A stretch of DNA of 64,000 bases, from the NCBI GenBank assembly GCA_951813285.1, contig OX638355.1, positions 4,712,437 through 4,776,436 on the forward strand, in the 5' to 3' direction. Below are positions 31,004 to 58,272 of this stretch, piece after piece. The DNA is from Terriglobia bacterium. Lineage in GTDB: Bacteria; Acidobacteriota; Terriglobia; Versatilivoradales; Versatilivoraceae. Every line of letters starts with the position of its first letter. The stretch's first letter is position 1. The notes beneath the pieces were generated by a model, which saw only the letters and a list, made by a program, of their open reading frames with translations, was not told where the DNA came from and ran no database searches. Made by a program: the position numbers and the translations under genes.

Positions 31004-31237
31004 GCCCCCCTCCTGATCGACTGCGGGCTGCGCCCTTGTCTCTCCGACTCCCCCTCAAGAGGGGAGTGATACTTGAGGCCTGCACCAGGCCTCTTGCCCG
31101 ATTCCTGGGCAGGATGTAAACCATGTTCCCGGTCTACCGCATAGACTCCGTTCCCTCTTCATCACACGGATATCACTCCCCCCTTGAGGGGGAGTCGGAG
31201 AAGCCGAGCCGCAGGCGAAGGCTGATGCGGTGGGGGG
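31004..31237. repeat. Hairpin-TIR repeat, family R copy 1 (TIR TCTCCGACTCCCCCTCAAGGGGGGAGTGATA at both ends, inverted)
   Basis: Left 31040-31070 and right 31172-31202 are reverse complements. Each contains the CTCCCCC-tcaa-GGGGGAG stem-loop. The first about 130 bp match 52233-52365 and 58010-58244 (reverse). Confidence 0.55.
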
Positions 31238-31376
31238 TTCGCACAAGGCGAGCCACAGGCGAGATCTTGTGCGCCGCTGCGGGGTTCGCACGAGGTGAGT
31301 TGCCAAGCGAAAACCTGTGCATCGATGTTAATTCTTCTCATAAATCACAGGGTGGAAAGCCCCGCCGGCTTGCCCA

Positions 31377-32489
31377 TCAGGCGCTGACCTTGAGGCGGTG
31401 GGCCTTGACTCTGCCCTGGCCGTCCTCGATGGTCCAGTAGGCGGCCAGGATGGTGCCGTCCTGCAGGGGCAGCAGCGACGCCTGGCCGAACCGCAGGGAC
31501 TGGAACATCTCGTGGATCACCTGGCCGGAATCGGTCGCCAGAGACTGACCGGCGTTCCAGATGAACTTCTCCTCCAGCGTCTTCCAGCGGTCTCCCGCCA
31601 GGTCGACGATCCGGATGCAGATGCCCAGATCCCCCTCCCGGTGGCAGTGGATGGTCAGCAGCAGGTCGTCGCCCAGCCACATCAGGTTGGATGCCTGGGC
31701 TTGATGACCGGTGTTGATCGGGTCCAACCAGGTGTGGCCGTTGTCCCGGGAGATGGCCACGTAGTTGGGCAGGTGTTTGGAGGCCGGAAAGTCGTAGGCC
31801 CAGGTAATGGCCACCACCCGCCCTGGCTGCATCTCGCAGATCCGTGACTCCCAGGCCGTCACTTCCCTGCCGGGGAGGTCGAAGAAGCGACCTCTGTCGT
31901 CCCAGGTTTCCCCGTTATCCCGGCTCCTGAACAGGACGCCGTACTGGCCGGAGGGATTGGAGCCGTCGGGCATCTTGAAGACGCCGGCCACGGCCAGCAG
32001 GTCACCCTCCGCGGTCTGAATGCAGGGACCCGAGATCTCCAGCAGTTCCGGGTGGCTGCGGGGAATGACCCGAGGGACTGTCCAGGTCCTGCCGTCGTCC
32101 TCGGAGAAAGAAACGATGTCATCTCCCGGCAGGATGCCTCCGGTCTCTTCGATGCTGATCCCCTGCTCCAGGTCGTGCCGGTAGAAGCAATAGCCGACCG
32201 CGATCAAGCGACCGTCCCGCAGCCGGGTGGCCTTCAGGCATTCGCTGGTCACCACCGGGTCCAGCGATTTGTCGTAGAGCGGCCCCTGCAGAGTCCAGCT
32301 TCGCCCGCCGTCCCGGGACCGCGAGACATGGGTGGTGGAGTTGGGCGACTCGAAGGCTTCTCCAAGGACGAACAGATTCAGCAGCTCCCCGTCGGACAAC
32401 TCCACCAAGCCGGGGAAAATCCCGTGGCGACTGTGGACTTGAGGCCTGGGATTGTCGTAGATGGTGACGTCTTCAATGACCTCGATCAT
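31377..32489 (-). CDS. BNR/Asp-box repeat protein, sialidase-like (GH33-like) fold, no signal peptide
   Basis: Four Asp-boxes 'SRDGGRSW','SEDDGRTW','SRDNGETW','SRDNGHTW'. 370 aa with no N-terminal hydrophobic segment. Confidence 0.8.
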   Translation of the reverse strand: MIEVIEDVTIYDNPRPQVHSRHGIFPGLVELSDGELLNLFVLGEAFESPNSTTHVSRSRDGGRSWTLQGPLYDKSLDPVVTSECLKATRLRDGRLIAVGYCFYRHDLEQGISIEETGGILPGDDIVSFSEDDGRTWTVPRVIPRSHPELLEISGPCIQTAEGDLLAVAGVFKMPDGSNPSGQYGVLFRSRDNGETWDDRGRFFDLPGREVTAWESRICEMQPGRVVAITWAYDFPASKHLPNYVAISRDNGHTWLDPINTGHQAQASNLMWLGDDLLLTIHCHREGDLGICIRIVDLAGDRWKTLEEKFIWNAGQSLATDSGQVIHEMFQSLRFGQASLLPLQDGTILAAYWTIEDGQGRVKAHRLKVSA

Positions 32490-32715
32490 GGATGGGTCCT
32501 CTCGAAAGGGGTGGGAGGGAATCTTCCGCTCCGGGCAAACCGGCGGAACCGGAAGGCCCCCGAGCGGGCCGCGGCGCGGTTTGCCAACGGGACAGCCATG
32601 GTGTATGGTTTTCCGTCGAGTGTCAATCGAAGTTTAGGGGCTTCGAGGGAGACAGAGCCGGACAGGTCCGAGGAACGAAACCTCCCATTTCATCGCACTG
32701 AGGAGACAGCCGCTC

Positions 32716-33468
32716 ATGAATCCGTATTCACAGTATCACCAGGAATTTTTCAGAAACGGTTTCGTCAGGCTCAAGGGCTACCTGACGCCCGAGGAGGTGC
32801 GGAACCTGGAGAAGAATCTAAAGCGCTACTTGGGCGAGATCGCCCCCGGCCTGCCCCCCACCGACGTCTTTTACGAGATCCAGGGGCGCGCGGAAACCCT
32901 CAAGCAGATGCAGAAAATGGAGGCGCACGACCCTTTCTTCCAGTCCATTACCGCTCTCCCCAAGTTCGCCAGGCTGGCCGAAGCGCTACTGGACACGCCG
33001 GTCGTTCTCCGAGGGGTAGAGCTCTTCAACAAGCCGGCGGGTATCGGAAAGCCCACGCCTCCCCACCAGGACGGATACTATTTCTGCCTGGTCCCCAGCC
33101 AGGCCGTGACCCTGTGGTTCCCGCTGGATCCGGTGAGCGAGGAGAACGGGTGCATCCGCTACGTCCGGGGCTCGCACCGCAAGGGCATCCGTCCTCACCG
33201 GGTGTCGAACATCCTGGGTTTTTCCCAGGGACTGAGCGACTGGGGGCCCGAGGATGAAGCCGCCGAAGTCAAGGCGCTGGCTTCGCCGGGAGACCTGCTG
33301 GCCCACCACTGCGACATGATTCACCGCGCCGATGCCAATCCCAGCCGGATCTCCCGCAGGGCTCTGGCCATCGTCTACGACGCCGCCTCCGCCACCATCG
33401 ACCAGGCAGCCCAAGCCCGCTACAAACAGTCCTCGACGGCTCAGCGGGTCGAGATACAGTCCCGGTGA
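32716..33468 (+). CDS. Phytanoyl-CoA dioxygenase (PhyH) family protein (second copy)
   Basis: 'PHQDGYYF' (HxD), 'HHCDMIHRADANPSRISRRALAIVY' (distal His, Arg). Confidence 0.85.
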   Translation: MNPYSQYHQEFFRNGFVRLKGYLTPEEVRNLEKNLKRYLGEIAPGLPPTDVFYEIQGRAETLKQMQKMEAHDPFFQSITALPKFARLAEALLDTPVVLRGVELFNKPAGIGKPTPPHQDGYYFCLVPSQAVTLWFPLDPVSEENGCIRYVRGSHRKGIRPHRVSNILGFSQGLSDWGPEDEAAEVKALASPGDLLAHHCDMIHRADANPSRISRRALAIVYDAASATIDQAAQARYKQSSTAQRVEIQSR

Positions 33469-33483
33469 AATTCCCCGAACCGC

Positions 33484-34611
33484 CTACTCCACTCTCAGAC
33501 GGGCAAAGCGGATCTGGGTGACGGATACCTCGGTGCACCAGAAGGTCGCCAGGATATCGCCGTCGTCCAACACGGTCGCCATGGGAGCCCCGAAGGCAAT
33601 GCTGTCATGGGACCGCGGGTAGGACTCGGGCGCATCGGTTCCGATCTTGTCGCGGCCGGTGGCGTCCCAAACCTGGATCTGGTTGTCGAGGTCCCAGGTG
33701 AGGCCTCCGTCCTGGGAGCAGGCCGCGAAAAACCCGGGAGGGTCGGTCTCCCGCACCGTATAGACCACCGCCATGCGGCCCCCGCCCACATCCACGGCCC
33801 AGTTGGTCTGTCCGGGGATGTTGGTCGGGACCGGCTCCGACCACTCCCGCCCGTCCGGGGTGCCGGTGGAAGCGTACAGCGTCAGGTTGCTCCCGGACTT
33901 GAGATCGGCCGTCCAGAACAGGGCAAACAGGCTGTCGTCGCGCTGCCGGATGACTCGCCCGTGCCAGTGGCCCTTACCGGTGTCCGATCCGACCCCGAAG
34001 ATCACCGGATCCCCCCAGCTTCGACCTTCATCCGAGGAAAAGAGCCCCACGGTCCTGGGCTTGTAGGGACCGGGGTCTTGGTAGGCGTGCCACTGGTCGA
34101 ACGCCTGAAACCAGTCTCCGTTCGACAAGACCACCGCGGAGCAACTGGGGGTGATCACCATGCCTTCGGGAACCCGTAGAACCCGTGGCCCCGTCCAATT
34201 GGCGCCCTTGTCGGCGGACCGGTAGAAGAGAGTGTCGGCAGGGAAAATGCCGCCGGTCTGCTCGTTGAACAACGGATGGGCCGGATCGGACCGGTCCCAG
34301 CGCTGGGCCGTCATCAGCAGGGAGCCGTCGGGCAGACAAGTGCACATGGGGGCGTGGTAGGAGTAGGCCCGGTCGTCCCCGGAGGCGTCATGGATCAGTC
34401 CCTCGGTCTGCCAGCTCCGCCCTCCGTCGCTGGAGCGCGCCTGTACCATCGCCGAGTCCACGCTGTAGAGGGCCTGGCCCCGTTGAAAGGTGCAGAGCAG
34501 CTCCCGCGGCGTCACCTGGACCAGGTAGCTGTGGCAGGCGAAATGGAACTCGTAGCCCGGATTGGTATTGCGGTAGACCACCCCCTGGTCGACCAGACGG
34601 ATGCTTGCCAT
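33484..34611 (-). CDS. BNR/Asp-box repeat protein, sialidase-like fold, no signal peptide (second copy)
   Basis: 'SSDGGRSW','SADKGANW','SSDEGRSW','SQDGGLTW' Asp-boxes. Confidence 0.8.
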   Translation of the reverse strand: MASIRLVDQGVVYRNTNPGYEFHFACHSYLVQVTPRELLCTFQRGQALYSVDSAMVQARSSDGGRSWQTEGLIHDASGDDRAYSYHAPMCTCLPDGSLLMTAQRWDRSDPAHPLFNEQTGGIFPADTLFYRSADKGANWTGPRVLRVPEGMVITPSCSAVVLSNGDWFQAFDQWHAYQDPGPYKPRTVGLFSSDEGRSWGDPVIFGVGSDTGKGHWHGRVIRQRDDSLFALFWTADLKSGSNLTLYASTGTPDGREWSEPVPTNIPGQTNWAVDVGGGRMAVVYTVRETDPPGFFAACSQDGGLTWDLDNQIQVWDATGRDKIGTDAPESYPRSHDSIAFGAPMATVLDDGDILATFWCTEVSVTQIRFARLRVE

Positions 34612-34839
34612 GAAATTTCTCCCCCGCGGGCGTCTCTCATCGATCGGACCGACTCATGAGTCCGTCCCCTGACCGCAGTCGGCAAAACACTCGGAGGGGG
34701 CGGTTGCTATCGGCGCCTGCACGATATAGGTCCTTTGCTGCCGGGGGACAGGAAATTCACCGGGGTTCGAGCATGGACGCAAATGGTTCGTCCGAGCCCA
34801 CCCGATCTCCACACACGGCGCTTATGACGACCAGGCTCG

Positions 34840-37311
34840 CTACACTTCGCCCGGCCTCGCCATACGGTAGCCGACCCGGCGTACGTTAAAGATGTAGGCG
34901 GAATTCTGCGCGTCATCGCCGAGCTTGCGACGGAGCCTCTTCACATAGGTGCGAACCAGGCGAGGATCGCCTTGCTCCCGCTTGCCCCACACTTGGCGCA
35001 GCAACGACTCGAAGGTGACGACCCGTCCCGCATTGACTGAAAGTACTCTGAGCAAATCGAATTCGGTGGCTGTCAACTCCAGCGGATTCCCGGCCACCTT
35101 CACCCGTCGTCCCGCGTAGTCGATCGCGACCTCCCCCAACCTGAAGGGTTCAGGCGGCTCGGCTACTCGGCGCAGGACCGCCTGGACTCTCGCCACCAGC
35201 TCCGTCCGCGAGAAGGGCTTGACGATGTAGTCGGAGGCGCCCTTCTGCAGGGCCTTGGCGACGGTCCCGTCCCTTCCATAACCGGAGATGAAAATGACCG
35301 GCAGACCGGCTATCTCCGGAACTCGCTCCATTAACTCAATGCCATCGGTTCCGGGCAGCATCAGGTCCAGCAGGACCAATTCGGGCTTCTTGGCATTGAT
35401 CAGATGGGGCACCTCCTGAGGGTCGCCCGTCACAAAGGGTATGTAGCCCGCGGCCGTAAGAGAGTCTCGAACGAAACGCAATGTCAGCGGGTCGTCGTCC
35501 ACCACCAGGATGCGTGTTCGCTCCAGTCTTTCCCGAGGCGAACGTGTGGGATTCAGGGCGAAGCCGTTAGTGGCACGGATGGCGGTCTCCTCGGCTATCG
35601 GAATCGTGAACGTGAATCGTGCGCCCAAACCTGTTCCACCGCTTTCCGCCCGGATGCGGCCCCCATGGGCTTCCACCAGTCCCTTGCAGATGGACAGCCC
35701 CAAGCCCGACCCCCTGATCCCGTCTTCGCCGCCTCCGACACGGGCGTACTTGCGGAACAGATTCGGCAACTGATCCGGAGGTATGCCCCGACCTTCATCC
35801 GAGATCGAGACGGCCACGTACAATCCATCCACTACGGCCGAGACCCGGATGGGCGCAGAGTCGGAAGACTGCCTCGACGCATTGGAGAAGAGGTTGTTGA
35901 GAACCTGGACGATGCGACGATGGTCGGCCAGCACCCGGGGCAGGTCTGGCGGCAGGTCGATCAGGAGGGCGTGCCGGCCACCGCCACTCAGAAAGGTATT
36001 CCTGGCTTGCTCCACCAGGTCGGCCACCTCTGCCGGCTCAGGCGTGACCGACAGAGTGCCCGCCTCGATACGCCCGGCATCCAGCAGGTCGCTGATCAGG
36101 CCGCGCATGTGATCGGCCTGTTGTTCGATGATGCGGAAAAACTGAATAATCTCGGCAAGGTCCGGGGCCGGAGAGGCGTCCATCACGGTGGCGGCCGAGC
36201 CCTTGATGGAAGTCAGCGGCGCTCGCAGTTCGTGACTCACCAAGCTCAGAAACTCGGCCCGCGACCGCTCCAGCTCTTCCAGCGGCGCCATGTCCTGAAT
36301 GACAACCACCACCGACTCGACCGCGCCGTCCCCGGAACGGATGGGCGTGGCGTTGACCAACGTGGTGACGCTCCCGCCGCCCGGAACTTCAAACACGGTC
36401 TCACTGGCACGCAGCATCGTACCTCTGCTCAGCACATGCGCCGCCGGATACTCTTCCAATGAGAATTCACTACCGTCGGCGCACCGGCACTTCATGACCT
36501 CCAGCAACTGTTCCGCGGACTGACCTGCGGGGCTCAGATCCTCGACAATTCGCCTCGCCTCCCGATTGATCAACACCGGCTGTCCGGTCCGCGCATTGAA
36601 AACCGCAACGCCTATAGGCGAGGTGTCAACCAGGGCCTCCAGATCGGCCCGGGCCCGATGCTCCTTACGGTAAGTGCGCGCGTTGGCGATCGCCGTGGCC
36701 GCCTGGGCGGCGAACAACACCAGAACATCCTCGTCTTCGCTGGAAAACTCCCGTCCGCCGGCCTTGCCGGCCAGATAGAAGATGCCGACACTCACCCCCC
36801 GATGACACAACGGCGTTCCCAGAACGGTCTTCGGCAGGATCGGGTGCCGGGAAAGACCAAGCGACCGGACGTAGCCATGCATGTCAGTTGATCTCAAGGC
36901 ACCCTCACGGTCCCGGAGGTGTTCGAACAACCGGAGCCCGTCGGCCCATTCCGTCATCTGGTGGCGCTCTTCCTGAGTGAAGCCGGAAAAAACGACCTCC
37001 TCCAACTGTCCCGAGTCCCCGATGGTCGCGATAACACCATAACGGGTGCCGATCAGCGCGCGGGCGCCTTCTACAATCTCGGACAAGACCGTGTCGAACT
37101 CAAGGCTTGCGCTGATGCGCAGGCTGGCCGCGCTTAGCTTGGAGATGCGATCCCGCAGGACCGCGACCTCCTGCATCAGTTCGTCGCGACTCTTCAATTC
37201 CCTTCTCCTTTGGATACCGGAGCCAAACCCGGCTCCTGGCCGCCGCTCCCTGTCTCGAAGCAGACACCGGAGTCGAGGCCCGCCAAGCTCCGCTGGCGCC
37301 AAGACCAGCAT
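34840..37311 (-). CDS. Full-length cytoplasmic hybrid sensor kinase / OmpR-type regulator (coiled-coil-GAF-PAS-HisKA-HATPase-REC-wHTH)
   Basis: 823-aa ORF with no TM segments. All domains readable. The real start may be the internal Met at about 37176 ('MQEVAVLRDRISKL') because the first 45 residues are Arg/Gly-rich. Confidence 0.85.
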   Translation of the reverse strand: MLVLAPAELGGPRLRCLLRDRERRPGAGFGSGIQRRRELKSRDELMQEVAVLRDRISKLSAASLRISASLEFDTVLSEIVEGARALIGTRYGVIATIGDSGQLEEVVFSGFTQEERHQMTEWADGLRLFEHLRDREGALRSTDMHGYVRSLGLSRHPILPKTVLGTPLCHRGVSVGIFYLAGKAGGREFSSEDEDVLVLFAAQAATAIANARTYRKEHRARADLEALVDTSPIGVAVFNARTGQPVLINREARRIVEDLSPAGQSAEQLLEVMKCRCADGSEFSLEEYPAAHVLSRGTMLRASETVFEVPGGGSVTTLVNATPIRSGDGAVESVVVVIQDMAPLEELERSRAEFLSLVSHELRAPLTSIKGSAATVMDASPAPDLAEIIQFFRIIEQQADHMRGLISDLLDAGRIEAGTLSVTPEPAEVADLVEQARNTFLSGGGRHALLIDLPPDLPRVLADHRRIVQVLNNLFSNASRQSSDSAPIRVSAVVDGLYVAVSISDEGRGIPPDQLPNLFRKYARVGGGEDGIRGSGLGLSICKGLVEAHGGRIRAESGGTGLGARFTFTIPIAEETAIRATNGFALNPTRSPRERLERTRILVVDDDPLTLRFVRDSLTAAGYIPFVTGDPQEVPHLINAKKPELVLLDLMLPGTDGIELMERVPEIAGLPVIFISGYGRDGTVAKALQKGASDYIVKPFSRTELVARVQAVLRRVAEPPEPFRLGEVAIDYAGRRVKVAGNPLELTATEFDLLRVLSVNAGRVVTFESLLRQVWGKREQGDPRLVRTYVKRLRRKLGDDAQNSAYIFNVRRVGYRMARPGEV

Positions 37312-37495
37312 CCTGACCCCATGAGTTCATGATAATAACACTAAAATGACTGAATTATTCACACTATTGGCATTCAGTTTTATTGCACAATCAGAAACAA
37401 GGCTGGAAAGGAAGGGTCGCGCTACGTCGATGCCTTGCAGTTACTGGACCGCACGGAAGAAGAGCTGCGGGAAGCCGAGGCCGAGAGAAAAACAG

Positions 37496-37708
37496 GGGAC
37501 GTTGTTGAATAATTGGAAATGCCGGGCGGGGTGATTCTGAAATGCCTTGGATTCGACTGGAAGGGCTCGAAACCTCGTCGTTTGACGGGATGTGCTGAGA
37601 ACCAGGACCGTTCAGCCGGGCCTGACCGAGCACCGGCTGCTCCTTTGCTGCCGGCCAGGGCTCACGCACGGGAAAAAAGTGATTCCCGTAAGCCAACAAC
37701 TTCGCCAT
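37496..37708. mobile_element. MITE-like element, family A long subfamily (about 210 bp); right terminus degenerate
   Basis: Left terminus GGGGACGTTGTTGAATAATTGGAA. The interior is about 75% identical to the 38392..38603 copy. Confidence 0.5.
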
Positions 37709-37736
37709 ATTTTATCCCCGCCAAAATCGGTTTGGG

Positions 37737-38198
37737 TCACGACGTGAGGATCTTGTAAAGCAGGCCGAACATGGGAATGAACAGCAGGCTGATGAGCGTC
37801 CAGATGATCTTGGTGAGGTTGTTCATCTCCGCTCGGAGAGCGGTGAATTGAGCTTGCAGACCCTTGATCTGAGTTTGCATCTCAGACCGGAGCTCGGTGA
37901 TCTGAGTTTGCACGTCGGACCGGAGCTCGGTGATCTGAGTTTGCACGTCGGACCGGAGCTCGGTGATCTGGGCTCCGATGGCGGTGGTGACGTTCTGGCC
38001 ACTCAAGTGACGTATCTCCTCGATGGCGGGATGGATCAACTTGGGGTCCGCGCCGCTGTCGATCAGGACCCGATGAATTGCGCTGGTTTGAGGTTTTGAC
38101 GAGGTCGGCACTAGCTTTCTCCCTTTCCGGATGGGGTGATTCCGCTCACCCAACCCGTGGAAACGATTCAATGCGAAGAGGGAGAAAGGTGCGGCCAC
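37737..38198 (-). CDS. Small coiled-coil protein with C-terminal TM anchor (DUF1640/XhlA-like architecture) and 3 tandem 11-aa repeats
   Basis: 'QITELRSDVQTQITELRSDVQTQITELRSEMQTQIKGLQAQFTALRAEMNNLTKIIWTLISLLFIPMFGLLYKIL'. A GTG start at 38111 preceded by AGGGAGAAAG is an alternative and would give 124 aa. The DUF1640 assignment is from memory of the family pattern. Confidence 0.5.
   Translation of the reverse strand: MAAPFSLFALNRFHGLGERNHPIRKGRKLVPTSSKPQTSAIHRVLIDSGADPKLIHPAIEEIRHLSGQNVTTAIGAQITELRSDVQTQITELRSDVQTQITELRSEMQTQIKGLQAQFTALRAEMNNLTKIIWTLISLLFIPMFGLLYKILTS
37869..37967. repeat. 33-bp direct tandem repeat x3 inside the coiled-coil gene (copies 2 and 3 identical)
   Basis: ctgagtttgca(c/t)(g/c)tc(g/a)gaccggagctcggtgat repeated at 37869, 37902 and 37935. 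Confidence 0.85.
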
Positions 38199-38391
38199 GC
38201 CGGGGACGGCCGGGGCCGATCGGCACCGGCGAAACCATACCTTGAACAGTATACCCTGACAGGCCCGCTATTGACGCCATGAATCCTTGCCCGGCGGCCC
38301 CGACTCAGTCTCGAGGCCACCGGGAACAATCAGGCAACCAATAGGGTTGCCGCCGACTTAGGGGGACAGCGCGAGATGGCCCGGGAGAACC

Positions 38392-38603
38392 GGGGACGTT
38401 GTTTTATTACTGGAAAAATCGGGTGGAGCGACTCTGAAATGCTTTGGAAATGGACGGGAAGGGTCGACACCGGGTAGTGTGACAGGGCGTGCTGGGAAGC
38501 AGGTTCGTTCAGCCGAGTTCGACGAAGCGTCGGCTGGTCGTTATCCGCCGGCCAAGGCGTAGATGTCGGAATAGAGTTATTCCAGTAATTCAACTACATC
38601 CCC
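38392..38603. mobile_element. MITE-like element, family A long subfamily (212 bp), both termini intact
   Basis: GGGGACGTTGTTTTATTACTGGAA ... TTCCAGTAATTCAACTACATCCCC. Confidence 0.6.
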
Positions 38604-38727
38604 CGTACTTGCCGGAGACGCTTGAACCACCCCTCCCACCGAGCACCCATCCAGTCCCTTCTCCCCACCGCTTCAGGTATACTGGACGCCATTCACCCAT
38701 CGGAACCGAACTCACCGAGGAGACACC

Positions 38728-39336: not shown

Positions 39337-39342
39337 GATTTC

Positions 39343-40809: not shown

Positions 40810-40906
40810 CTCGAATCCCTCCCATTGGAAGACGGGGTCCGGTGACCGGGAGGCTCCCTTGGCTCCAGTCGCCCTCCGGGGCTGTCGCGTCCCGGCAGGG
40901 ACACCC

Positions 40907-45165: not shown

Positions 45166-45263
45166 GGCGTCCTCACTTTCTCACACAGTGGCGTTGGTTG
45201 GTTAATCGGATAGCTTCGATTCTTGTCTCACAGGGATGAACAGGATGGATCCACCGAATCCGG

Positions 45264-46016: not shown

Positions 46017-46089
46017 GGTGTCCTCTCCCGCAGCCTTTGTTCAGGCCCCGGTGGCGGCGGTTGCGCCTCCAAGGGCGGCTCGCCCATCC

Positions 46090-47163: not shown

Positions 47164-47182
47164 TGGACTCCTATTAGATCCT

Positions 47183-48172: not shown

Positions 48173-48191
48173 TCTCCGTCTGCCTTTCAGA

Positions 48192-49253: not shown

Positions 49254-49419
49254 GTGAGTTGACTTGGCAGGCCGGCGGCGCCGGTCCCGGAGTCCCCGCC
49301 ATCATAGAAGCGAGACCTGCCGCCATCAACTAAAAAAGATTGGGGAGGGTAGGACCACGGGCCCTCCTTGCTCCCCCAAAGCCTTTGGCATACTATTTCC
49401 GCAGGCGTCGGGAGAACTC

Positions 49420-50235: not shown

Positions 50236-50237
50236 CC

Positions 50238-51590
50238 ATGTCGAGCGGCCCCTGGCGTGAGGAGCACGACTTCCTGGGCCCGGTCCAGGTCCCGCGGGAA
50301 GCCCTTTATGGAGCCCAGACCCAACGCGCCCTGCACAACTTTCCACTGTCGGGGGAGCGCTCCATCGGCGACTATCCGACCCTGGTGGAGGCGCTGCTGC
50401 GCATCAAGTGGGCGGCTGCCGAGGCCAATCGGACGGCCGGGTTCCTGGACGCCGAGGTCGCCGCGGCCATCGTTCGAGCGGTTCGGGAACTGATCGACGA
50501 AGGGGCCTGTCGCCATTTCCCCATCCATCGCTTCCACGGAGGAGGAGGCACTTCGGCCAACATGAACGCCAACGAAGTGCTGGCCAACCGGGCCGAAGAG
50601 CTCCTGGGAGGGGGCCGGGGGCAATACCATCTGGTCCATCCCAACGATCACGTCAACCTCCACCAGTCCACCAACGACGTCTACCCCACCGCCTGCCGCA
50701 TGGCCGTGATCGCTTCCCGGCCCCCGCTGGCCGATGCCCTTGAAGGACTGAGGCAGGTCTTGCGAACCCAGGCCTCCCGATTCCAGGACGAGCCCCGGGT
50801 GGCCAGGACCTGCCTTCAGGATGCGGTGGCCGTCACTTTCGGGGACCTGTTCGGAGGCTATGAAGCCACCCTTGCCCGAGCCGCCGGCCGGATCGCCCGC
50901 GACGTGGACGAGCTGCACGTCATTAACCTCGGCGGCACCATCGTGGGGCGCTCGCAGGATGCTCCCGAGGTTTATCGGGATCGGATCCTTCCCAGCCTTC
51001 GGGAAATCAGCGGCGACCCGGCCTACCGCTTGGCGCCCGACCTCTTCGACGCCGCCCAGAACCCGGACGGGATGGTGGCAGTCTCCACCGCCCTGGAGAT
51101 GCTGGCCCGGACCCTCATCAAGATCGCCAAGGACCTGCGGCTGCTCAGTTCAGGCCCCGAGGCGGGCCTGGGAGAGATCCGGCTCCCTGCCGTTCAGCCC
51201 GGCTCCTCCATCATGCCCGGCAAGGTAAATCCGGTGATTCCGGAGTTCGTCGTTCAGTGCTGCTTTCAGGTCATCGGAAACCATGCGGCTTGCGCCGGCG
51301 TCCTGGACCACGGCGAACTGGACCTGAACATCTGGGAGAGCCTCCTGCTCTTCAATGTGCTGGATTCGATGGGCTTGCTGGCAAACGCCGCCCAAACCCT
51401 GGCCGAGCGCTGCCTGGCGGGAATGACGGTGGCGCCGGAACGCAACCGGTCCAACGCCGACTCCATCATCCCCCGATTGACCGAGCTGGTGAAGAAACGA
51501 GGCTACTCGGCGGTCAGCCGCGTGTGCCGGGAGGCCGGGGGGGACCCGCGGAAAATCCGAGATTTGTTGAAGAAAGAAGGCTGGAACTAG
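50238..51590 (+). CDS. Aspartate ammonia-lyase / class II fumarase family (lyase_1) protein
   Basis: From 'MSSGPWREEHDFLGPVQVP'. 'TSANMNANEV','GSSIMPGKVNP' signature. Confidence 0.85.
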   Translation: MSSGPWREEHDFLGPVQVPREALYGAQTQRALHNFPLSGERSIGDYPTLVEALLRIKWAAAEANRTAGFLDAEVAAAIVRAVRELIDEGACRHFPIHRFHGGGGTSANMNANEVLANRAEELLGGGRGQYHLVHPNDHVNLHQSTNDVYPTACRMAVIASRPPLADALEGLRQVLRTQASRFQDEPRVARTCLQDAVAVTFGDLFGGYEATLARAAGRIARDVDELHVINLGGTIVGRSQDAPEVYRDRILPSLREISGDPAYRLAPDLFDAAQNPDGMVAVSTALEMLARTLIKIAKDLRLLSSGPEAGLGEIRLPAVQPGSSIMPGKVNPVIPEFVVQCCFQVIGNHAACAGVLDHGELDLNIWESLLLFNVLDSMGLLANAAQTLAERCLAGMTVAPERNRSNADSIIPRLTELVKKRGYSAVSRVCREAGGDPRKIRDLLKKEGWN

Positions 51591-51663
51591 CCCGGAGGGC
51601 CGCCGGACGAGATAGGCGGACCTCCCCTCTTGCCGCCTGGCGGCTCAATCAGGAGAAAGTCCT

Positions 51664-52122
51664 ATGAAATTCCAAGACCCATCCCCCACCGAAGCCACCC
51701 GAGCGCCGCGGGAAGAAACAAGCCCAACGGAAATTGTGACCGTGCGTCCCAGCCGGGAGGTGATGTCCAAGCAGCGTCTTCCCTATTTCTTTGGAGTCTC
51801 GGAGGAAACTTCCGGAGCACGGGGAATTTCCATGAGCCTGGTGGTCATCCCCCCCGGCGGTGCGGCCGAACCCCACTACCATCGAGGCTTCGAAACCGCC
51901 ATCTACATGCTGGAAGGAAGTGTCGAGACCCGTTACGGCAAGGGGCTGCGCCGCAAGGTCACCCACCGCCCGGGAGATTTTCTCTTCATTCCGCCCGGCG
52001 TGCCTCACCAACCGGTCAACCTCAGCGACCGGGAGCCGGCCAGGGCCATCGTGGCCCGCAATCACCCCAGCACCAACGAAGAGGTGGTCTTCTACGATCC
52101 GGGGGCGGAGGATGTGGGCTGA
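51664..52122 (+). CDS. Cupin-domain protein
   Basis: 'PHYHRGFETAIYMLEGS...GDFLFIPPGVPH' two-motif cupin signature. Confidence 0.7.
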   Translation: MKFQDPSPTEATRAPREETSPTEIVTVRPSREVMSKQRLPYFFGVSEETSGARGISMSLVVIPPGGAAEPHYHRGFETAIYMLEGSVETRYGKGLRRKVTHRPGDFLFIPPGVPHQPVNLSDREPARAIVARNHPSTNEEVVFYDPGAEDVG

Positions 52123-52232
52123 GGCGTCAGCGCCCTCGTACTCTTCCGTAAAGGTGCATCACGAGACCCGCCCGAAGCCCTTGTACGACGCCGCCAACAG
52201 GCCGCTGATATTCCGCACGGGACGCCGCGTTT

Positions 52233-52465
52233 GCCCCCCTCCGGATCGACTGCGGGCGGAGCCCTTGTCTCTCCGACTCCCCCTCAAGGGGGGAGTGATT
52301 CTTGAGGCTTGCAAAGGGCCTATTGCCCCATTCCTGGGCACGATGTAAACCATGTTCCCGGTTTAATGTGTGGACCATGCCCACCCGGGAGCGCGGGCGT
52401 CCCGCCCGCTTCCTTATTCCTGCAATCAGCCTGCGGTCCACGCCACTCTCTTGCAAGGAGGGCAC
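52233..52465. repeat. Hairpin-TIR repeat, family R copy 2 (about 230 bp)
   Basis: About 90% identical to the reverse complement of 58010..58244. Abuts MITE family A copy at 52468. Confidence 0.55.
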
Positions 52466-52467
52466 CG

Positions 52468-52540
52468 CTGGGGACGTTATTGAACAAGAGCAATTCGGAA
52501 GCGGTCGATCAAAGTTATTCCAGTAATTCAACAACGTCCC
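52468..52540. mobile_element. MITE-like element, family A short form (73 bp; termini intact, interior deleted)
   Basis: GGGGACGTTATTGAACAAG ... TTCCAGTAATTCAACAACGTCCCC. Confidence 0.5.
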
Positions 52541-52762
52541 CTACTCCCCTCAGCACGAGAGGTTGCTGCACCACAAGCTGGCTCGGGCGGCGATCCGCTA
52601 CGGGCTTGCGGATGCCCAGGATTACAGGACGCCGGACTCCCAAAACCAAATCCTGTATATCCTGTTAATCCATGTGAATTATTCTTGTAAATCACGAGTC
52701 GGGAATTGCACGCCCGAACCGCCAAGCGAAGGCAGATGGCGTAGGGGGTGCCCCCCGGGGTC

Positions 52763-54655
52763 TCAGTGGCTTCGGAAGACCCGCAGGACGTCCTCGATCT
52801 CTCCAAGAATGGCCGGGGCGTCGATGGTGGAAGGAACGGTGTAGTCGCGCCCGTCGGCCAGGTCCCGAAGGGTGCGGCGCAGGACCTTGCCGGAGCGGGT
52901 CTTGGGCAGGCGCTGGACCAGCAGGGCTTTCTTGAAGCTGGCCACGGCTCCGATGTCCGACCGGACTTCCTGAATGATCTCGGCTTCGATGGCCTCCCAC
53001 TGGCGCTCCACCCCGGCCTTCAACACCACGAACCCCAGGGGGATCTGACCCTTGAGCGCGTCCCGGGCGCCGACCACGGCGCACTCGGCCACGTCGGGAT
53101 GGCCGGAAACCACCTCCTCCATTCTGCCGGTGGAGAAACGGTGGCCGGCCACGTTGATGACGTCATCCACCCGCCCCATGACGAAAAGGTACCCCTCCTC
53201 GTCCTTGAAGCCACCGTCGGCGGTGAAGTAGTAGCCGGGGAAACGGCTGAGATAGGACTCCAGAAAACGCCGGTCGTCATTCCACAGGGTCGGCAGGCAG
53301 CCCGGGGGCAGCGGAAGCTTGACGGCGATCAGCCCCTCCTTGCCGGGTCCCAGGACCCGGCCCTCGCCGTCGAGCACCTGGATGTCGTATCCGGGAACGG
53401 ACCTGCCGGCAGAGCCGGGCTTGAGCGGATGGGGAGAGAGCCCCATGCAGTTGGCAGCCATCGGCCACCCGCTCTCGGTCTGCCACCAGTGATCGATGAC
53501 CGGTATCCCCAGAAGGCGGCCGGCCCAGTGAAAAGTGTCCGGGTCCAGCCGTTCGCCGGCCAGGAAGAGATAGCGCAGGCAGGAGACATCGTGGTCCTTG
53601 AGGTGCTCCCCCTCCGGATCTTCCTTCTTGATGGCCCGGAACGCGGTCGGGGCCGTGAACAGGACCTTCACCCCGTGCTGGGACACCACCCGCCAGAAGG
53701 CTCCCGCATCCGGCGTCCCCACCGGCTTGCCCTCGTAGAGCAGGCTGGTGCAGCCGTGCATCAGGGGGCCGTACACCGTATAGGAATGGCCCACCGCCCA
53801 ACCGATGTCGGAAGCCGCCCAGAAGACGTCTCCCGCCTGTACGTCGTAGATGTTGTCCAGGCTCCACCGCAAGACTACCGCGTGTCCGCCGTTGTCTCTC
53901 ACCACGCCCTTGGGTTTCCCGGTGGTCCCCGAGGTGTAGAGGATGTAGAGGGGGTCGGTGGCCTCCAGGGGCAGGCAGTCCACCGGATCGGCCGCGGCAA
54001 CCATTTCCTCCCAGTCCAGGTCTCGTCCCGGCTGGAGAGCGGCCCGCGACTGCGGCCTCTGGTAGACCACGCAGACCGCCGGCTTGTGCTCGGCAAGGTC
54101 GATAGCCGCGTCCAGCAGGGGCTTGTAGGGAATGACCTGCTGCACCTCGATCCCGCAGGAAGCAGTCACGATGGCCTTGGGTCGGGCGTCGTCGATCCGG
54201 ATGGCCAGCTCCTGGGAAGCGAAGCCGCCGAAGACCACCGAGTGCACCACGCCGATGCGGGCGCAGGCCAGCATGGCCACCACCGCCTCGGGGATCATGG
54301 GCATGTAGATGATCAGACGATCTCCTTTTTCCAGGCCGGCGGCACGCAGCGCTCCGGCGAAACGGGAGACCTCCTGCTGCAGTTCCCGATAGGAGATCCG
54401 GCGGACGACGCCGGTGACCGGGCTGTCGTAAATCAGGGCGGCCTGCTCCGCCCGCCCGTTCTCCACCTGTCGGTCCACTGCGTTGTAGCAGGTGTTGAGC
54501 CTGCCGCCCTTGAACCAGTGGACGAACTGCCCCCGGGAGACATTCAGGACACGGTCCCACTTGCGATCCCAATGCACGGCCTCGGCCGCCTCGGCCCAGA
54601 AGGCCTCAGGTTCCTCCAGGGAATGCCGATAGAGGGTTTCGTAGGTTGATTTCAT
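52763..54655 (-). CDS. Acyl-CoA synthetase of the acetyl/propionyl-CoA synthetase family (PrpE-like propionate--CoA ligase)
   Basis: From 'MKSTYETLYRHSLEEPEAFWAEAAE'. AMP-binding 'YTSGTTGKPKGV'. About 630 aa as in PrpE. The ORF as listed extends about 39 codons further upstream. Confidence 0.85.
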   Translation of the reverse strand: MKSTYETLYRHSLEEPEAFWAEAAEAVHWDRKWDRVLNVSRGQFVHWFKGGRLNTCYNAVDRQVENGRAEQAALIYDSPVTGVVRRISYRELQQEVSRFAGALRAAGLEKGDRLIIYMPMIPEAVVAMLACARIGVVHSVVFGGFASQELAIRIDDARPKAIVTASCGIEVQQVIPYKPLLDAAIDLAEHKPAVCVVYQRPQSRAALQPGRDLDWEEMVAAADPVDCLPLEATDPLYILYTSGTTGKPKGVVRDNGGHAVVLRWSLDNIYDVQAGDVFWAASDIGWAVGHSYTVYGPLMHGCTSLLYEGKPVGTPDAGAFWRVVSQHGVKVLFTAPTAFRAIKKEDPEGEHLKDHDVSCLRYLFLAGERLDPDTFHWAGRLLGIPVIDHWWQTESGWPMAANCMGLSPHPLKPGSAGRSVPGYDIQVLDGEGRVLGPGKEGLIAVKLPLPPGCLPTLWNDDRRFLESYLSRFPGYYFTADGGFKDEEGYLFVMGRVDDVINVAGHRFSTGRMEEVVSGHPDVAECAVVGARDALKGQIPLGFVVLKAGVERQWEAIEAEIIQEVRSDIGAVASFKKALLVQRLPKTRSGKVLRRTLRDLADGRDYTVPSTIDAPAILGEIEDVLRVFRSH

Positions 54656-55371
54656 GGTCGGGCTCGATTTCTTGAGTCGAAACGACATTGACAGACGAGT
54701 CAAGTGTCTTAAATTGTGGATTGTCGATTTCTGATTGTTGATTGGCGGGGATGAGAACTGACTTTGCCTCAAATCTAAAATCTACAATCCACAATCAACA
54801 ATTCATTTCTTGAGCCTTTTGCAAGATTCGTCGTCGGGCGATCCTTATTCGGATCGAGGGTTTTTCCTCCCGAGTCCCTCAAGGATCCGGTGACACTGAA
54901 CCGGTTTGCCGTCTGAAGCTCAATGGCCACAAAAGGCACAAAAACACAAAAAGAACCATCGGATGGGCAAGTCTCGAAATCAAGAAACTCGTTTTGTGCC
55001 TTTTGTGCTTTTTGTGGTTTCTGTTGTCTCTTGTGCTTATCGTGGTGAATGCTGGAGCCTGCAGCACATCATCCTTGCCGCCTCAATGTCATTCCCGATT
55101 GCGATATTTGCAAAAGGCTCATAATAAACATGGATACACAGGATGCACAGGATAACCAGTACGGGACGCTGCTGCACGAGAAGCCGGCTCCGGCAATGAT
55201 CGTGTGCGGATTTGCGGATGCTCAGGATTACCAGCTAGCCGTTTCCTGAAAAAATCCTGTGCATCCATGTGAATCAAAACCTGTTCCGAGCCTCCATAAA
55301 ACCGTTGGCTGCGGAATTTTGCAAAAGGCTCTGTCTTGTCGGTCCGAGGTCTGCGCCTTCCGCGAACCGGT

Positions 55372-57282
55372 TCAAATCCAGATCTCGACCAGGGTCTTGC
55401 CCAACCAGGCGCCGAAATAGGCCAGAGCCAACATGTAGCCGAATTGCAAAATGGCCAGCCGCCAGCCGCCGGTCTCCCTCCGGACGACGGCCACCGTGGA
55501 CATGCACTGGAGGGCGAAAGCGAAAAAGATCAGCAGGGCGACCGCTGCCCCCGGGGTCAGATCCTGCTTCAGGGCCTGCTGCAAACCAGGGGAGCCTTCG
55601 TCTCCTCCCTCCTCTGCCGCCTCGATTCCGTAAATGGTCCCCAGGGTGCCCACGATCACTTCTCGCGCCGCCAGGGAGGTGATCAACCCGATCCCGATTT
55701 TCCAGTTGAAGCCCAGGGGCTCGATGACCGGCTCGACAGCCTTTCCCATCTTGCCGGCCAGGCTGTGGGAAATTTCCGGCGCCTCGCCGTCGGTGCGAGG
55801 CACACTGGCCAGAAACCAGAGCACCACCGTCACCAACAGGATCACGGTCCCGGCGCGCTTGAGAAAGATGAGCGAACGGTCGGCCAGCCGCAGGCCGATG
55901 GACTGCAGGGTGGGCCAGCGGTAGGGAGGGAGCTCCAGGGTGAAAGGCAGGGGACTCCGCCGTTTCAGGAGGGTGGACTTCAGCAGCCGGGCGGTCGCCA
56001 CCGCGGCCCCGAAACCCAGCAGGTAAAGTCCGATCATGGCCGCGGCCCGTGTGCCCAGCAACGGCCCCAACAGAGGCTTTTCCGGCAGGAAGGCGGCGAT
56101 GACCAGCACATAGACCGGCAGCCTGGCCGAGCAGGTCATGAACGGGGCGATCAGTATGGTCGCCAAGCGTTCCCGCCGGCTCTCGATGGTGCGGGTGGCC
56201 ATGATGGCCGGTATGGCGCAGGCGTAAGCCGACAACAGGGGGATGAAGGCCTTGCCCTCCAGACCCACCCGAGCCATGGTGCGGTCGGCAATCACGGCCG
56301 CCCGGGCCAGGTATCCCGAATCCTCCATCACTCCGATCAAGAGAAACAGGAAGAGGATCTGGGGGAGGAACACCAGGACGGAGCCCACCCCGGCCCAAAC
56401 CCCTTCCAGGAGCAGGTCGCGGAACCAGGAATCGGGCAGCAGGGTGCCTATCCAGAGGCCCGAGGCGGCTATGACGGCTTCGGTGCCGTCCATCAGGGGC
56501 TGGGCCAGCGTGAAGATACTTTGAAAGACAGCCATCACCACCAGGAGAAAAATCAGCGGCCCTCCCAGGGGATGCAGCAACACCGAGTCCAGGCGGCGGG
56601 TCCAAACGGCGGCGGCGGGCGCCTGGTAGCCCGACTGGCCGGTGGCATGGACCGCCCAGCGGCGGCGGCCAGGGATATCCTGAAGCACCGGCAGCTCCAG
56701 CCGCTGGGGGGCCGCGGAGCGACGGGACAGGAAGGCGCGGATGGTCTCCAAGCCCTCACCCCTGGCGGCGCTGGCCAGGACCACCGGAACCCCCAACCGC
56801 TCGGACAGGCGCCGGCCGTCCACCATTCCGCCCCGGCTGTGCAGGTCATCGGACATGTTCAGGACAACCAGGGTGGGGATTCCCAATGCCAGGATGGGGG
56901 CGGCCAGGCTCAGGTTGCGGTTCAGATTGGTGGAGTCGACCACCAGCAGGACGGCGTCCGGAGAAGGCAGGCCCGGCATCTCGCCCAGCAGCACCCCTCG
57001 GGCCACCCGCTCGTCCTCCGATCGGGCCGTGAGGCTGTATATGCCCGGCAGGTCCACCAGGGTGATCTCCCGGCCGCCCTCGACTCTGACCCTGCCCAGG
57101 CGCTTTTCTACCGTGACCCCCGGATAGTTGGCCACCTTCTGCCGGAGCCCGGTGAGCCGGTTGAAGAGCGTGGATTTTCCGCAATTGGGGGCGCCAACCA
57201 CGGCGACCAGGGAGAAGGCGCCGGAGGTCTTTGGCGTAGCGGGCGGGGCTTTGGCGGCCGAAGCAGCCTGGAAATCAGACAT
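55372..57282 (-). CDS. feoB: Ferrous iron transporter FeoB
   Basis: N-terminal G-domain 'GAPNCGKSTLFNRLTG','DLPG','NMSD', followed by a polytopic membrane domain. Confidence 0.9.
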   Translation of the reverse strand: MSDFQAASAAKAPPATPKTSGAFSLVAVVGAPNCGKSTLFNRLTGLRQKVANYPGVTVEKRLGRVRVEGGREITLVDLPGIYSLTARSEDERVARGVLLGEMPGLPSPDAVLLVVDSTNLNRNLSLAAPILALGIPTLVVLNMSDDLHSRGGMVDGRRLSERLGVPVVLASAARGEGLETIRAFLSRRSAAPQRLELPVLQDIPGRRRWAVHATGQSGYQAPAAAVWTRRLDSVLLHPLGGPLIFLLVVMAVFQSIFTLAQPLMDGTEAVIAASGLWIGTLLPDSWFRDLLLEGVWAGVGSVLVFLPQILFLFLLIGVMEDSGYLARAAVIADRTMARVGLEGKAFIPLLSAYACAIPAIMATRTIESRRERLATILIAPFMTCSARLPVYVLVIAAFLPEKPLLGPLLGTRAAAMIGLYLLGFGAAVATARLLKSTLLKRRSPLPFTLELPPYRWPTLQSIGLRLADRSLIFLKRAGTVILLVTVVLWFLASVPRTDGEAPEISHSLAGKMGKAVEPVIEPLGFNWKIGIGLITSLAAREVIVGTLGTIYGIEAAEEGGDEGSPGLQQALKQDLTPGAAVALLIFFAFALQCMSTVAVVRRETGGWRLAILQFGYMLALAYFGAWLGKTLVEIWI

Positions 57283-57538
57283 TGTCCCCCTCTTCCCCCA
57301 CCTGCGTGGAATCCCTCAGTATCAAGCGCCGGGCAGTAGCGCGTCTGAGAGCGACCTCCGAGCCGTCCACCCGGAAGATCATGGGGTCCCCGCCGGGAGC
57401 CGCCCGCCCGGCGCTCACGCGAACACCGGGCAGAAAACCCAGCTCCATCAGTCGCTGCGCCACTTCCGCGGCGACCTCCAGGCGATCCAGGATCCCTTCC
57501 TCGCCTCGCTTCAAATCCGACAGTGTCCTGGCCGGCAT
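57275..57538 (-). CDS. feoA: FeoA-domain protein
   Basis: From 'MPARTLSDLKRGEEGILDRL'. SH3-like FeoA pattern. An 8-nt overlap with feoB implies coupling. Confidence 0.75.
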   Translation of the reverse strand: MPARTLSDLKRGEEGILDRLEVAAEVAQRLMELGFLPGVRVSAGRAAPGGDPMIFRVDGSEVALRRATARRLILRDSTQVGEEGDNV

Positions 57539-58009
57539 TCTGTCCCCAACCTCAACCGCGCCCAAGGTGGTTGACCCTTATTTCCCGCAAGACAGGGCCA
57601 TTCTACACCCATTGGGCAAACAGACCGGAGCCTCAAGTCACATCACCGGTAGGACCGGGTCAGCGCCTGCCCCCCACCGCATCAGCCTTCGCCATTCGGC
57701 TCCCCCTCAAGGGGGGAGTGATACTCGATTTTCTTGAAGGACGTTTCATGAGATTGGGGAGTAGACTCCCGGAGATAGTCAATTGAAAAATCCTAGCCAC
57801 GGGCAGTGCCGTGAGTTAGGGGAGAGCCGCGAATGCGGCGGTTGGCGTGGGTCGTCCGAGGAAACGTCTCCTGCAAGCCATCCTTATAGAGCAGCGTAGC
57901 TGCGGTCTCGTGTAGCCCCGGGCGGGAGCCCGGGGTCCTGTGAGTTCTGCGCCAACCTAGCCGCGTAGGCGGCGGATTGAGAGCTGCGTCCCCGAACGCG
58001 CGGCCAGTG

Positions 58010-58244
58010 GTGCTCTCCCTGTAGGGGAGTGCCATGGACCGCGGGCTGATTGCAGGAATAAGGATGCGGGCGGGACGCCCGCGCTCCCGGGGGGGCATCG
58101 TCCACACATTAAACCGGGAGAATGGTTTACATCCTGCCCGGGAATCGGGCAAGAAGCCTGGTTCAGCGCTCAAGAATCACTCCCCCCCTTGAGGGGGAGT
58201 CGGCGAGACAAGGGCAGAGCCCGCAGTCGAGCCGGTGGGGGGCC
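58010..58244. repeat. Hairpin-TIR repeat, family R copy 3 (inverted relative to copy 2)
   Basis: Reverse complement matches 52233..52465 over about 225 bp, including the CTCCCCCTCAAGGGGGGAGTGATTCTTGAG hairpin. Confidence 0.55.
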
Positions 58245-58272
58245 AACGCGGCATCCCGATGGTGGGGTGCAG

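Follow-up and report, generated by a model that had tools for sequence, protein, structure and literature searches.

Repeat modules in the Terriglobia window

The window analysed here (the whole stretch of 64 kb, from contig OX638355.1 of a Terriglobia bacterium) contains a dispersed non-coding repeat, the unit of which is a module of 53–67 nt. Three long copies of this repeat had been described in a first-pass annotation, and they are present at 31000–31237(+), 52218–52471(+), and 58004–58258(–) (hereafter c1, c2, and c3). The window modules belong to the class of intrastrand-triplex repeats known from Escherichia coli as BoxC, PIT (potential intrastrand triplex; Hoyne/Maher 2000), and TM or TMECO (Holder 2015, PMC4666352).

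When 220 hairpin instances from the module-bearing blocks listed were lined up, a common module of 60–80 nt was obtained. It reads 5'-C6-(A/T)CC-P1-GA-P2-TGAT, where P2 is the hairpin CTCCCCC-TCAAG-GGGGGAG and P1 is a three-tier hairpin composed of a basal 4-bp stem, a conserved TC/TC internal loop, a middle stem, and an apical stem-loop. P1 occurs in two main versions, type A (GGATCGAC..GGGC..GCCC..GTC..TCC) and type B (GCATCAGCC..GCC..GGC..GGCT..TGC). The apex of P1 tolerates insertions, and in some taxa P1 is replaced by simple hairpins. In Arenicellales/Poriferihabitaceae (L119, 1182–1800 and 4718–4830; L086, 5400–5700; L numbers are handles for loci), a simple P1 (AAATCCGC..GCGGATTT) is followed by tandem GGGGGAGTGAT-like units.

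A covariance model of the module (R1), run on the 64-kb window with filters off, yielded exactly six modules with scores of 50–84 bits, the next best match reaching 11 bits. Four of them lie on the plus strand and two on the minus strand, and all six are intergenic according to Pfam-supported gene calls. The hairpin CTCCCCCTCAAGGGGGGAGTGAT (23 nt) matched at 31048, 31172(–), 52277, and 57700, with no match in 100 shuffles. A shortened version of it was found at 15360–15382, and the hairpin of c3 is the same sequence with one additional G.

Module 1 (15317–15382(+); type-B P1; 73.7 bits) has a P2 that is one pair shorter (CTCCCC/GGGGAG). It is flanked by two genes of the minus strand and lies on the upstream side of an aminotransferase gene; the aminotransferase Pfam domain begins only at residue 151 of the long open reading frame (ORF), and the module was therefore regarded as intergenic. 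Immediately upstream lies a degenerate half-module fragment (C5..GTATCAGCCTTCGGC; 15256–15295(+); repeat family D14, 65% to the reference). Modules 2 (31005–31070(+); type-A P1; 74.9 bits) and 3 (31172–31237(–); type-B P1; 83.5 bits) form the two halves of c1, separated by a linker of 101 nt (31071–31171(+), from the alignment of the long copies). Module 2 begins 53 nt past the stop of an M20 peptidase gene (Pfam M20, 29486–30952), and module 3 is co-oriented with a BNR gene ending at 31377; the two genes flanking c1 are convergent.

Module 4 (52234–52299(+); type-A P1; 83.4 bits) belongs to c2 and lies 112 nt past the stop of a cupin gene (Pfam cupin, 51664–52122), the other neighbour of c2 being an acetyl-CoA synthetase gene. 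Module 5 (57670–57722(+); 50.4 bits) is of type B with most of P1 deleted, and is located between a dinB-like gene and feoA, on the upstream side of the latter and antisense to both (Pfam DinB_2, FeoA). Module 6 (58176–58242(–); type-A P1; 80.9 bits) belongs to c3, starts 31 nt past the stop of a DinB-family gene, and has one extra G in its P2. In c2, module 4 is followed by an extension (52300–52471(+); alignment and repeat family I6, 84% to 58004–58196; terminator-like match) that consists of a linker-like segment, a separate repeat with the hairpin GCGGGCGTCCCGCCCGC (52393–52409), and a T-rich tail. The homologous extension of c3 occupies 58004–58175(–), with the hairpin at 58066–58082. This hairpin repeat is terminator-like and co-oriented with the upstream gene in both copies; it also recurs apart from the triplex module in relatives (L001, L120–L122).

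Comparison of the long copies showed that the family of about 230 bp described in the first-pass annotation is an assembly of smaller parts. The proposed identity of 85–90% applies to c2 and c3 (84–89% across about 250 nt), whereas c1 is homologous to them only over its first ~137 nt (90% to c2) and diverges beyond; the first ~66 nt of its linker (ACTTGAGGCC..GGATGTAAACCATGTTCCCGGT) are common to all three. Next to the hairpin, the long copies carry a type-A P1 (GGATCGACTGCGGGC..GCCCTTGTCTCTCC). The companion sequence CCGCATCAGCCTTCGCC, said to accompany the shorter fragments always, is a real part of the module, but it is found at 15324, 31214(–), and 57677 and hence not always; it represents one of two alternative P1 versions, namely type B. 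The 7-bp G/C hairpins, described as termini, are internal in c1, the outer ends of which are C6 tracts. The inverted pair of hairpins in c1 was correctly recognised: c1 ends in a second, inverted module and is a tail-to-tail doublet (module A(+), linker, module B(–)). A single family resembling miniature inverted-repeat transposable elements (MITEs) is not borne out, as the unit is the short module, c2 and c3 contain one module each and no second end, and the suggested inspection of flanks revealed no target-site duplication at the window copies. The annotation did not recognise that the C6 tract, the hairpin, and the companion are one triplex motif and that the hairpin is common to many phyla.

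The same parts are met in various combinations in other genomes. The c1-type doublet with its linker was found at 90–92% in L103, L070, and L022 of a "Ca. Versatilivorator" chromosome, and also in L072. Inverted A+B doublets occur in L009, L037, L072, and L208 (with shorter linkers in L009, L037, and L208), and head-to-head doublets with linkers of ~30 nt are present in other metagenome-assembled genomes (MAGs). Modules are thus met alone, as A+B inverted doublets, or joined to other repeats, as in c2 and c3, where module A and the first part of the linker are followed by a different repeat. This organization resembles that of bacterial interspersed mosaic elements (BIMEs). In collapsed modules (L123, 4225–4300; L209, 2345–2440), C6(A/T)CC and half of P1 run straight into GGTG6, the tail in reverse complement, without P2; they look as if they had arisen by recombination between the halves of an inverted doublet.

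Another repeat family of the window (3633–3777, 21115–21260, 22768–22913, 37475–37716, 38372–38613, and 52470–52551) has inverted arms GGGGACGTTGTTGAATTACTGGAA ... TTCCAGTAATTCAACAACGTCCCC about 140 nt apart, and one of its copies directly adjoins c2. In unrelated MAGs (L036, 5080–5460; L023, 2580–2960; L057), module doublets of the head-to-head type have related arms (GGGGTTGTTGAAAAAC / GTTTTTCAACAACCCC) on their flanks, and therefore the two families may travel together. An attC identity for the arm family was rejected by reading only, the GTT/AAC boxes being in the wrong order.

Covariation and the triplex rule

The folding of P1 was evaluated on an alignment of 81 distinct modules, in which the pairs were counted. 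In this alignment 92% of the cells were paired, and two-sided changes were observed in nine of the 12 P1 pairs (208 cells). The covariation score was 0.314, compared with 0.111 for shuffled alignments (none of 500 reached the observed value) and at most 0.091 for slid controls. P2 was invariant and C6ACC nearly so; in lineage L032, the closing pair of P2 is changed from C:G to T:A. The head of the module was C6(A/T)CC in the aligned modules, without the GT[AG]G head of repetitive extragenic palindromic (REP) sequences.

On the G-rich strand, the sequence runs CTCCCCCC-TTGA-GGGGGAG-(TC and hairpin P1')-G-GTGGGGGG: a pyrimidine arm is followed by a purine arm and then by a third tract, rich in G, which is the mirror image of the purine arm except that T or A stands opposite A. 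The first two tracts constitute the hairpin P2. A detector was built on the rule of purine-motif triplexes alone (G*G:C; A or T opposite A:T). It found 31176–31236, 52235–52295, 57671–57718, and 58180–58241 (modules 3, 4, 5, and 6) and nothing else in 64 kb, with no match in five shuffles; the two modules that it missed each have one defect in P2. The third tract of module 4 is C6TCC, the A*A:T version. Column 7 was A in 69, T in 10, and G in two of the aligned modules, so that the third tract of 79 of 81 has on the G strand a T or A, the bases allowed opposite A:T. In L032, all three positions are changed jointly (TTCCCCC..GGGGGAA with C6AT), and in divergent copies a displaced A in the purine arm is matched by a mirrored displacement of the T/A in the third tract. 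The same detector also picked up a BoxC copy of E. coli, CCCTCGCCCC-TCT-GGGGAGAGGG-TTA-GGGTGAGGGG, between ycjD and fabI.

An E. coli TM sequence forms a triplex in vitro, as followed by circular dichroism and nuclear magnetic resonance, and TM repeats are always intergenic, without strand bias, with inverted pairs that always combine a type A with a type B copy (Holder 2015, PMC4666352). They are extremely conserved, they occur in more than 260 genomes, and TM loci are unusually rearranged (Holder 2015, PMC4666352). Loops are limited to 1–6 nt in the ITxF definition (Holder 2015, PMC4666352) and to 0–10 nt in that of Hoyne. Loop 1 of the modules described here, at 5–6 nt, falls within the TM definition. 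Loop 2 is 22–35 nt long (22 nt in module 5) and folded as P1, which makes the module a variant rather than a plain TM member; with loops limited to 1–6 nt, the published TM search would miss modules of the P1 type. The structured-loop form thus extends, in a way not described before, a class of repeats that is known but has found no explanation. The P1-type module would form an intrastrand triplex as well: the third strand could still fold back, as P1 brings its two ends together. G-quadruplex and i-motif structures were rejected, since each strand has too few tracts.

The strong covariation of P1 might also be expected of a transcribed structured RNA, that is, a stabiliser in the 3' untranslated region, a terminator, a small RNA, or a small peptide gene. 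The gene immediately upstream of the module has the same orientation in four of the six cases, a terminator-like hairpin follows 95–110 nt further on in c2 and c3, and one frame of the reverse module is free of stops and is read through inside hsdS-DUF559 ORFs elsewhere. However, no Rfam 15 family was found on the repeats at the gathering threshold, and raising the E value up to 10 gave chance-level matches only. P2 has no U-tract; the next sequence is TGAT(A/T)CTTGAGG, and no terminator-like site was detected in 30800–31500. A loose terminator scan of c2 and c3 flagged P2 and the separate hairpin (52393–52409, 58066–58082) with weak T-rich tails. Two modules are antisense to both neighbours, and inverted doublets and arrays are typical of DNA repeats.

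The mismatches within P1 also bear on this point. On the C-rich strand, A.C/C.A combinations were counted 26 times and G.T/T.G five times, although these counts are not phylogenetically independent; the excess indicates that wobble is tolerated on the G-rich strand. G.U pairs account for less than 1% of P1 cells, and relative to the upstream gene the wobble-tolerant strand is the antisense one, opposite to the mRNA-sense strand, for four of the six window copies. Moreover, purine-motif triplexes do not form in RNA (work cited in Holder 2015, PMC4666352). The evidence thus speaks for a structure that the G-rich strand of the DNA adopts on unwinding, and the RNA explanation as a whole is highly improbable. 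A small-RNA gene, which the first-pass annotation had kept in view, is unlikely in particular. RNA folding, which it proposed as a check, gave hairpin energies that are not convincing by themselves.

The "conserved small ORF" noted across the long copies most likely reflects DNA conservation in this window, as the annotation itself had assumed, with one caveat. In three ORFs from three phyla (L031, 6842–7723(–); L099, 3275–4141(+); L091, 3808–4659(+)), the central conserved region of hsdS, the gene for a type I restriction S subunit, is interrupted by a module, DUF559, and one or more further modules, and the whole of ~290 codons is open. The order of the read-through is HsdS-N, "ITPPLRGSRQ..", DUF559, "PPPHQPSPVGS..GGSD", and HsdS-C. 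The modules would be translated there as linkers, which correspond to the small ORF of the annotation. Because of this read-through, the stop-free frame of the module is perhaps not wholly accidental.

Distribution in relatives and association with DUF559 genes

Genomes were scanned with CTCCCCCTCAAGRGGGGAGTGA, with one genome per species and in 8-kb blocks; the window was not among the genomes scanned. The exact 22-mer of P2 was present in at least 119 genome blocks. Among the matches listed were MAGs of Acidobacteriota ("Ca. Versatilivorator," Acidobacteria, Terriglobia), Nitrospinota, Nitrospirales (Nitrospirota), Gemmatimonadota, Latescibacterota, Binatia, Gammaproteobacteria (Arenicellales, Poriferihabitaceae, Pseudohongiella, and others), and Alphaproteobacteria (Hyphomicrobiales, Rickettsiales). 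Several of the matching genomes are closed chromosomes; thus, binning errors cannot explain the spread across phyla. The SB06xx and PNGco sample series are sponge metagenomes, but we make no claim of restriction to sponges, since one match sits in a bin whose isolate name suggests a lake. In the 724 kb of module-bearing blocks listed, R1 detected 203 modules. Viral contigs scanned with the hairpin gave no match.

The best matches to the window repeats and the nearby spacer, among the matches listed, were loci of a chromosome of "Ca. Versatilivorator" sp. The spacer between the M20 and BNR genes, which holds c1, ranged from 235 to 1494 nt in five syntenic relatives. It contains a fused or deleted doublet in L123, a module without P2 in L125, no module in L122, and a different repeat content in L120 and L121. 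The spacer was too rearranged to reveal a clean empty site in these relatives, nor did an all-against-all comparison of loci provide a presence/absence pair that could be used. A literature search returned nothing relevant on the repeat sequence, on Versatilivorator, or on MITEs, REPs, and REP-associated tyrosine transposases (RAYTs) in sponges.

Imperfect palindromes of 20–40 nt that are extragenic, multi-copy, and mosaic, as well as inverted doublets with characteristic linkers in both head-to-head and tail-to-tail arrangement, would suit REP/BIME-type elements moved by a RAYT (an HUH Y1 transposase) or MITEs of an insertion sequence encoded elsewhere. We consider this explanation very unlikely. 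Apart from the C6(A/T)CC head and the lack of target-site duplications and of a second end in c2 and c3, no RAYT or IS200 TnpA was found by tblastn in the window or the 119 blocks listed with approximate query sequences, the best match being a weak one to a RadC-like ORF. Clustering of the ORFs of these blocks yielded, as the largest cluster, ORFs that read through the repeats; among the other clusters, each common to several loci with modules, no obvious transposase was recognised, and none of them was annotated. Furthermore, the mirror-symmetric third tract has no role in the REP or MITE models.

A different candidate enzyme was suggested by the genes beside the modules. ORFs of ~120 aa with PF04480 (DUF559, Vsr-like PD-(D/E)xK) were found bracketed by modules in five lineages, namely Nitrospira (L031), Binatia (L099), Latescibacterota (L091), Arenicellales (L119), and Versatilivorator (L072; ORF at 1812–2165), with a protein identity of 71–75%. 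A further set comprised 80 DUF559 loci from assorted metagenomes, all but two of which were only 48–64% identical to those five. In many of the 80 loci, R1 placed a module(–) ending at the DUF559 start and a module(+) beginning past its end. Within 130 nt of the DUF559 gene, a motif was picked up by the rule-only detector on the upstream side in 50 of 72 loci and on the downstream side in 56 of 74; the background of 0.34 motifs per kb corresponds to 0.058 expected per such interval. The orientation of the motifs was mirrored around the gene (minus in 49 of 68 upstream, plus in 57 of 76 downstream), and inverted repeats flanking DUF559 reached scores of 40 or more in 40 of 66 loci, the mean for shuffled sequences being 15. 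Thus, modules bracket DUF559 genes far more often than expected by chance.

Several loci lent further support to the link. In two related genomes, the DUF559 gene occupies different positions of a pil operon. Besides the nearby BoxC copy, E. coli ycjD has a second, degenerate copy at the stop codon, and a duplicate of ~40 nt of its 3' end adjoins its BoxC copies (E. coli K-12, L206, 2300–2420). Similarly, in a sponge acidobacterium (L208), a 27-nt fragment of the DUF559 3' end lies beside a solo doublet (1745–1775 vs. 2320–2347). The K-12 arrangement of ycjD is present in 3346 of 5426 E. coli genomes. In one O157:H7 genome, a TetR/RND efflux cluster stands beside fabI with a break about 40 nt from the BoxC copy. 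This polymorphism of the ycjD locus says nothing about mechanism. The text of Holder 2015 (PMC4666352) mentions neither DUF559 nor ycjD; a full-text literature search of incomplete coverage found no paper linking DUF559 or YcjD to triplex repeats, and the link may already have been known.

The rearranged loci could also be understood without a dedicated enzyme. The modules would then be passive, structure-prone DNA, spread by replication slippage, recombination, and horizontal transfer, with polymerase stalling destabilising their surroundings; the link to DUF559 would then be secondary, in that a homing-type selfish gene may target module doublets or the modules may serve the gene as insulators or expression signals. 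This account agrees with the lack of mobility genes near E. coli TMs and the link of TMs to instability (Holder 2015, PMC4666352), with the decayed, fused, and truncated modules of relatives, and with the window, which has six modules yet no DUF559. In L072, L208, and L031, moreover, a run of G directly adjoins the start codon of DUF559, a placement that would suit a ribosome-binding or regulatory signal. Nevertheless, we regard passive DNA as unlikely. The 23-nt P2 and C6ACC are near-identical across many phyla while P1 drifts with compensation, which points to recognition by a shared factor. About 70% of the DUF559 loci, which come from many habitats, are bracketed on both sides in mirror orientation; this, as well as the duplicated DUF559 3' fragments beside modules, would be hard to obtain by chance.

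Other features of the window were also recorded. Two Acido-Lenti-1 motifs (RF01687) at 25281–25326(+) (46.8 bits) and 57890–57935(–) (41.4 bits) are unrelated to the repeat. The first lies in a segment (25210–25547) that is multi-copy in Versatilivorator (five copies in L025; also in L022, L096, and L038), and the second is located between module 5 and c3. The spacer segment 54812–55331, between the acetyl-CoA synthetase gene and feoB, is 95% identical over 520 nt to L070:4138–4648 of another Versatilivorator genome. This value exceeds the overall DNA identity of 87–91% of the gene-bearing syntenic blocks, and the segment may be a conserved non-coding element or another repeat. A tandem array at 37811–37970 consists of four 33-nt units (TGATCTGAGTTTGCACGTCGGACCGGAGCTCGG) with 93% identity (family D12). 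Finally, a coding segment of ~1.6 kb is present in three diverged copies (71–79%), one of them inverted, at 242–1900, 4935–6404, and 34840–36754 (D2, D4, I1–I9); these are probably paralogous genes.

Proposed mechanism and comparison with known systems

Taken together, the modules are probably DNA-level elements of the triplex class rather than genes, and their spread may be linked to DUF559. Whenever the G-rich strand is unwound, it would fold into a triplex, with the third tract lying in the major groove as the third strand of the purine motif (G*G:C, T*A:T, A*A:T). A DUF559 protein, a predicted Vsr-like endonuclease, would recognise and nick the folded module, and modules would be duplicated, lost, and rearranged in the course of the ensuing repair, gene conversion, or recombination, giving rise to orphans, doublets, and hypervariable spacers. 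The modules may, with slightly less than even chances, be non-autonomous partners of a small selfish unit, module(–)-DUF559-module(+). Such a unit is present in L072, from the closest genus, and at many other loci, and was not found in the window. As the window itself lacks DUF559, its six modules would have to rely on a gene at another genomic site, of the kind seen in L072; they are possibly non-autonomous DNA elements processed by a nuclease encoded there.

A wider reading, which we hold more tentatively, is that the YcjD-type DUF559 proteins are the missing enzyme of BoxC/triplex repeats and that both together make up a widespread class of small selfish elements. With the same reserve, orphan modules and doublets could be seen as scattered and exchanged between phyla, conspicuously among sponge symbionts. 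The DUF559 fold family includes at least one selfish homing nuclease, a group I intron enzyme listed with Vsr/DUF559 (Steczkiewicz 2012, PMC3424549).

Several observations weigh against the proposed mechanism. Besides the length of loop 2, which lies outside the 1–6 nt of the TM definition, the ViennaRNA z-scores of the two hairpins were modest, from –0.9 to –2.4. Neither a DUF559 gene in the 64-kb window (tblastn) nor a DUF559 remnant flanking the window modules was detected. Transposition is not established, because neither a target-site duplication nor a clean empty site was found. The bracketing itself could have other causes: the gene could home into module doublets, or the modules could regulate the gene.

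In E. coli, BoxC/PIT/TM repeats were already known in the 1990s, and they occur in hundreds of bacterial genomes; their origin, spread, and function are unexplained beyond the link to instability. The present results add that the class includes structured-loop forms beyond the reach of earlier searches, and that one variant is shared almost letter for letter by many phyla, many of the carriers living in sponges. The DUF559 bracketing offers a concrete candidate enzyme, which is open to experiment through E. coli ycjD. Should the link be borne out, mobile or selfish elements of a new kind would be defined, and a large nuclease family of "unknown function" would gain a physiological substrate; such a system would parallel REP and RAYT, with an unrelated nuclease and a triple-helical DNA substrate. 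In practical terms, the modules are a cause of broken assemblies and of spurious ORFs in MAGs of high GC content.

Comparison with known repeat systems demonstrated that the modules share with REP, BIME, and REPIN elements the short imperfect palindromes with a conserved single-stranded head and the occurrence as singlets, inverted doublets, and mosaics with set linkers. As in REP/REPIN-RAYT systems, a small nuclease gene is flanked by repeats, with many orphan copies elsewhere. Unlike in these systems, the head is C6ACC and not GTAG, the flanked gene encodes a Vsr-like PD-(D/E)xK protein and not an HUH Y1 protein, and an extra invariant hairpin and a mirror tract are present. REPINs are usually lineage-specific, whereas the modules cross phyla. 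With Vsr-like homing endonucleases the system shares the DUF559 fold group and a gene that occupies differing sites in related genomes; however, there is no intron or intein context, and the flanks are structured repeats that are also multi-copy without the gene. Rickettsia palindromic elements are likewise small palindromes able to sit in frame inside coding genes, which recalls the hsdS-DUF559 read-through. All six window copies, in contrast, are intergenic and have no sequence similarity to these elements, and we know of no triplex symmetry described for them.

The closest likeness is to the BoxC/PIT/TM repeats. Both are built of three tracts, a C-rich arm followed by a G-rich arm and by the G-rich mirror of the latter, where A is faced by T or A, and both are always intergenic and multi-copy on both strands, with A+B inverted pairs and hypervariable spacers. 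Very high conservation between distant bacteria is common to both, and the E. coli copy lies beside the DUF559 gene ycjD. The differences concern loop 2, which is a covarying hairpin of 22–35 nt here and 3 nt (TTA or CCG) in E. coli BoxC, and the arms, which are 7 nt here and 10 nt there. In addition, unlike BoxC, the module has conserved TGAT and TCAA(G) and occurs joined to further small repeats, and the exact 22-mer is common to MAGs of many phyla, many of them from sponges.

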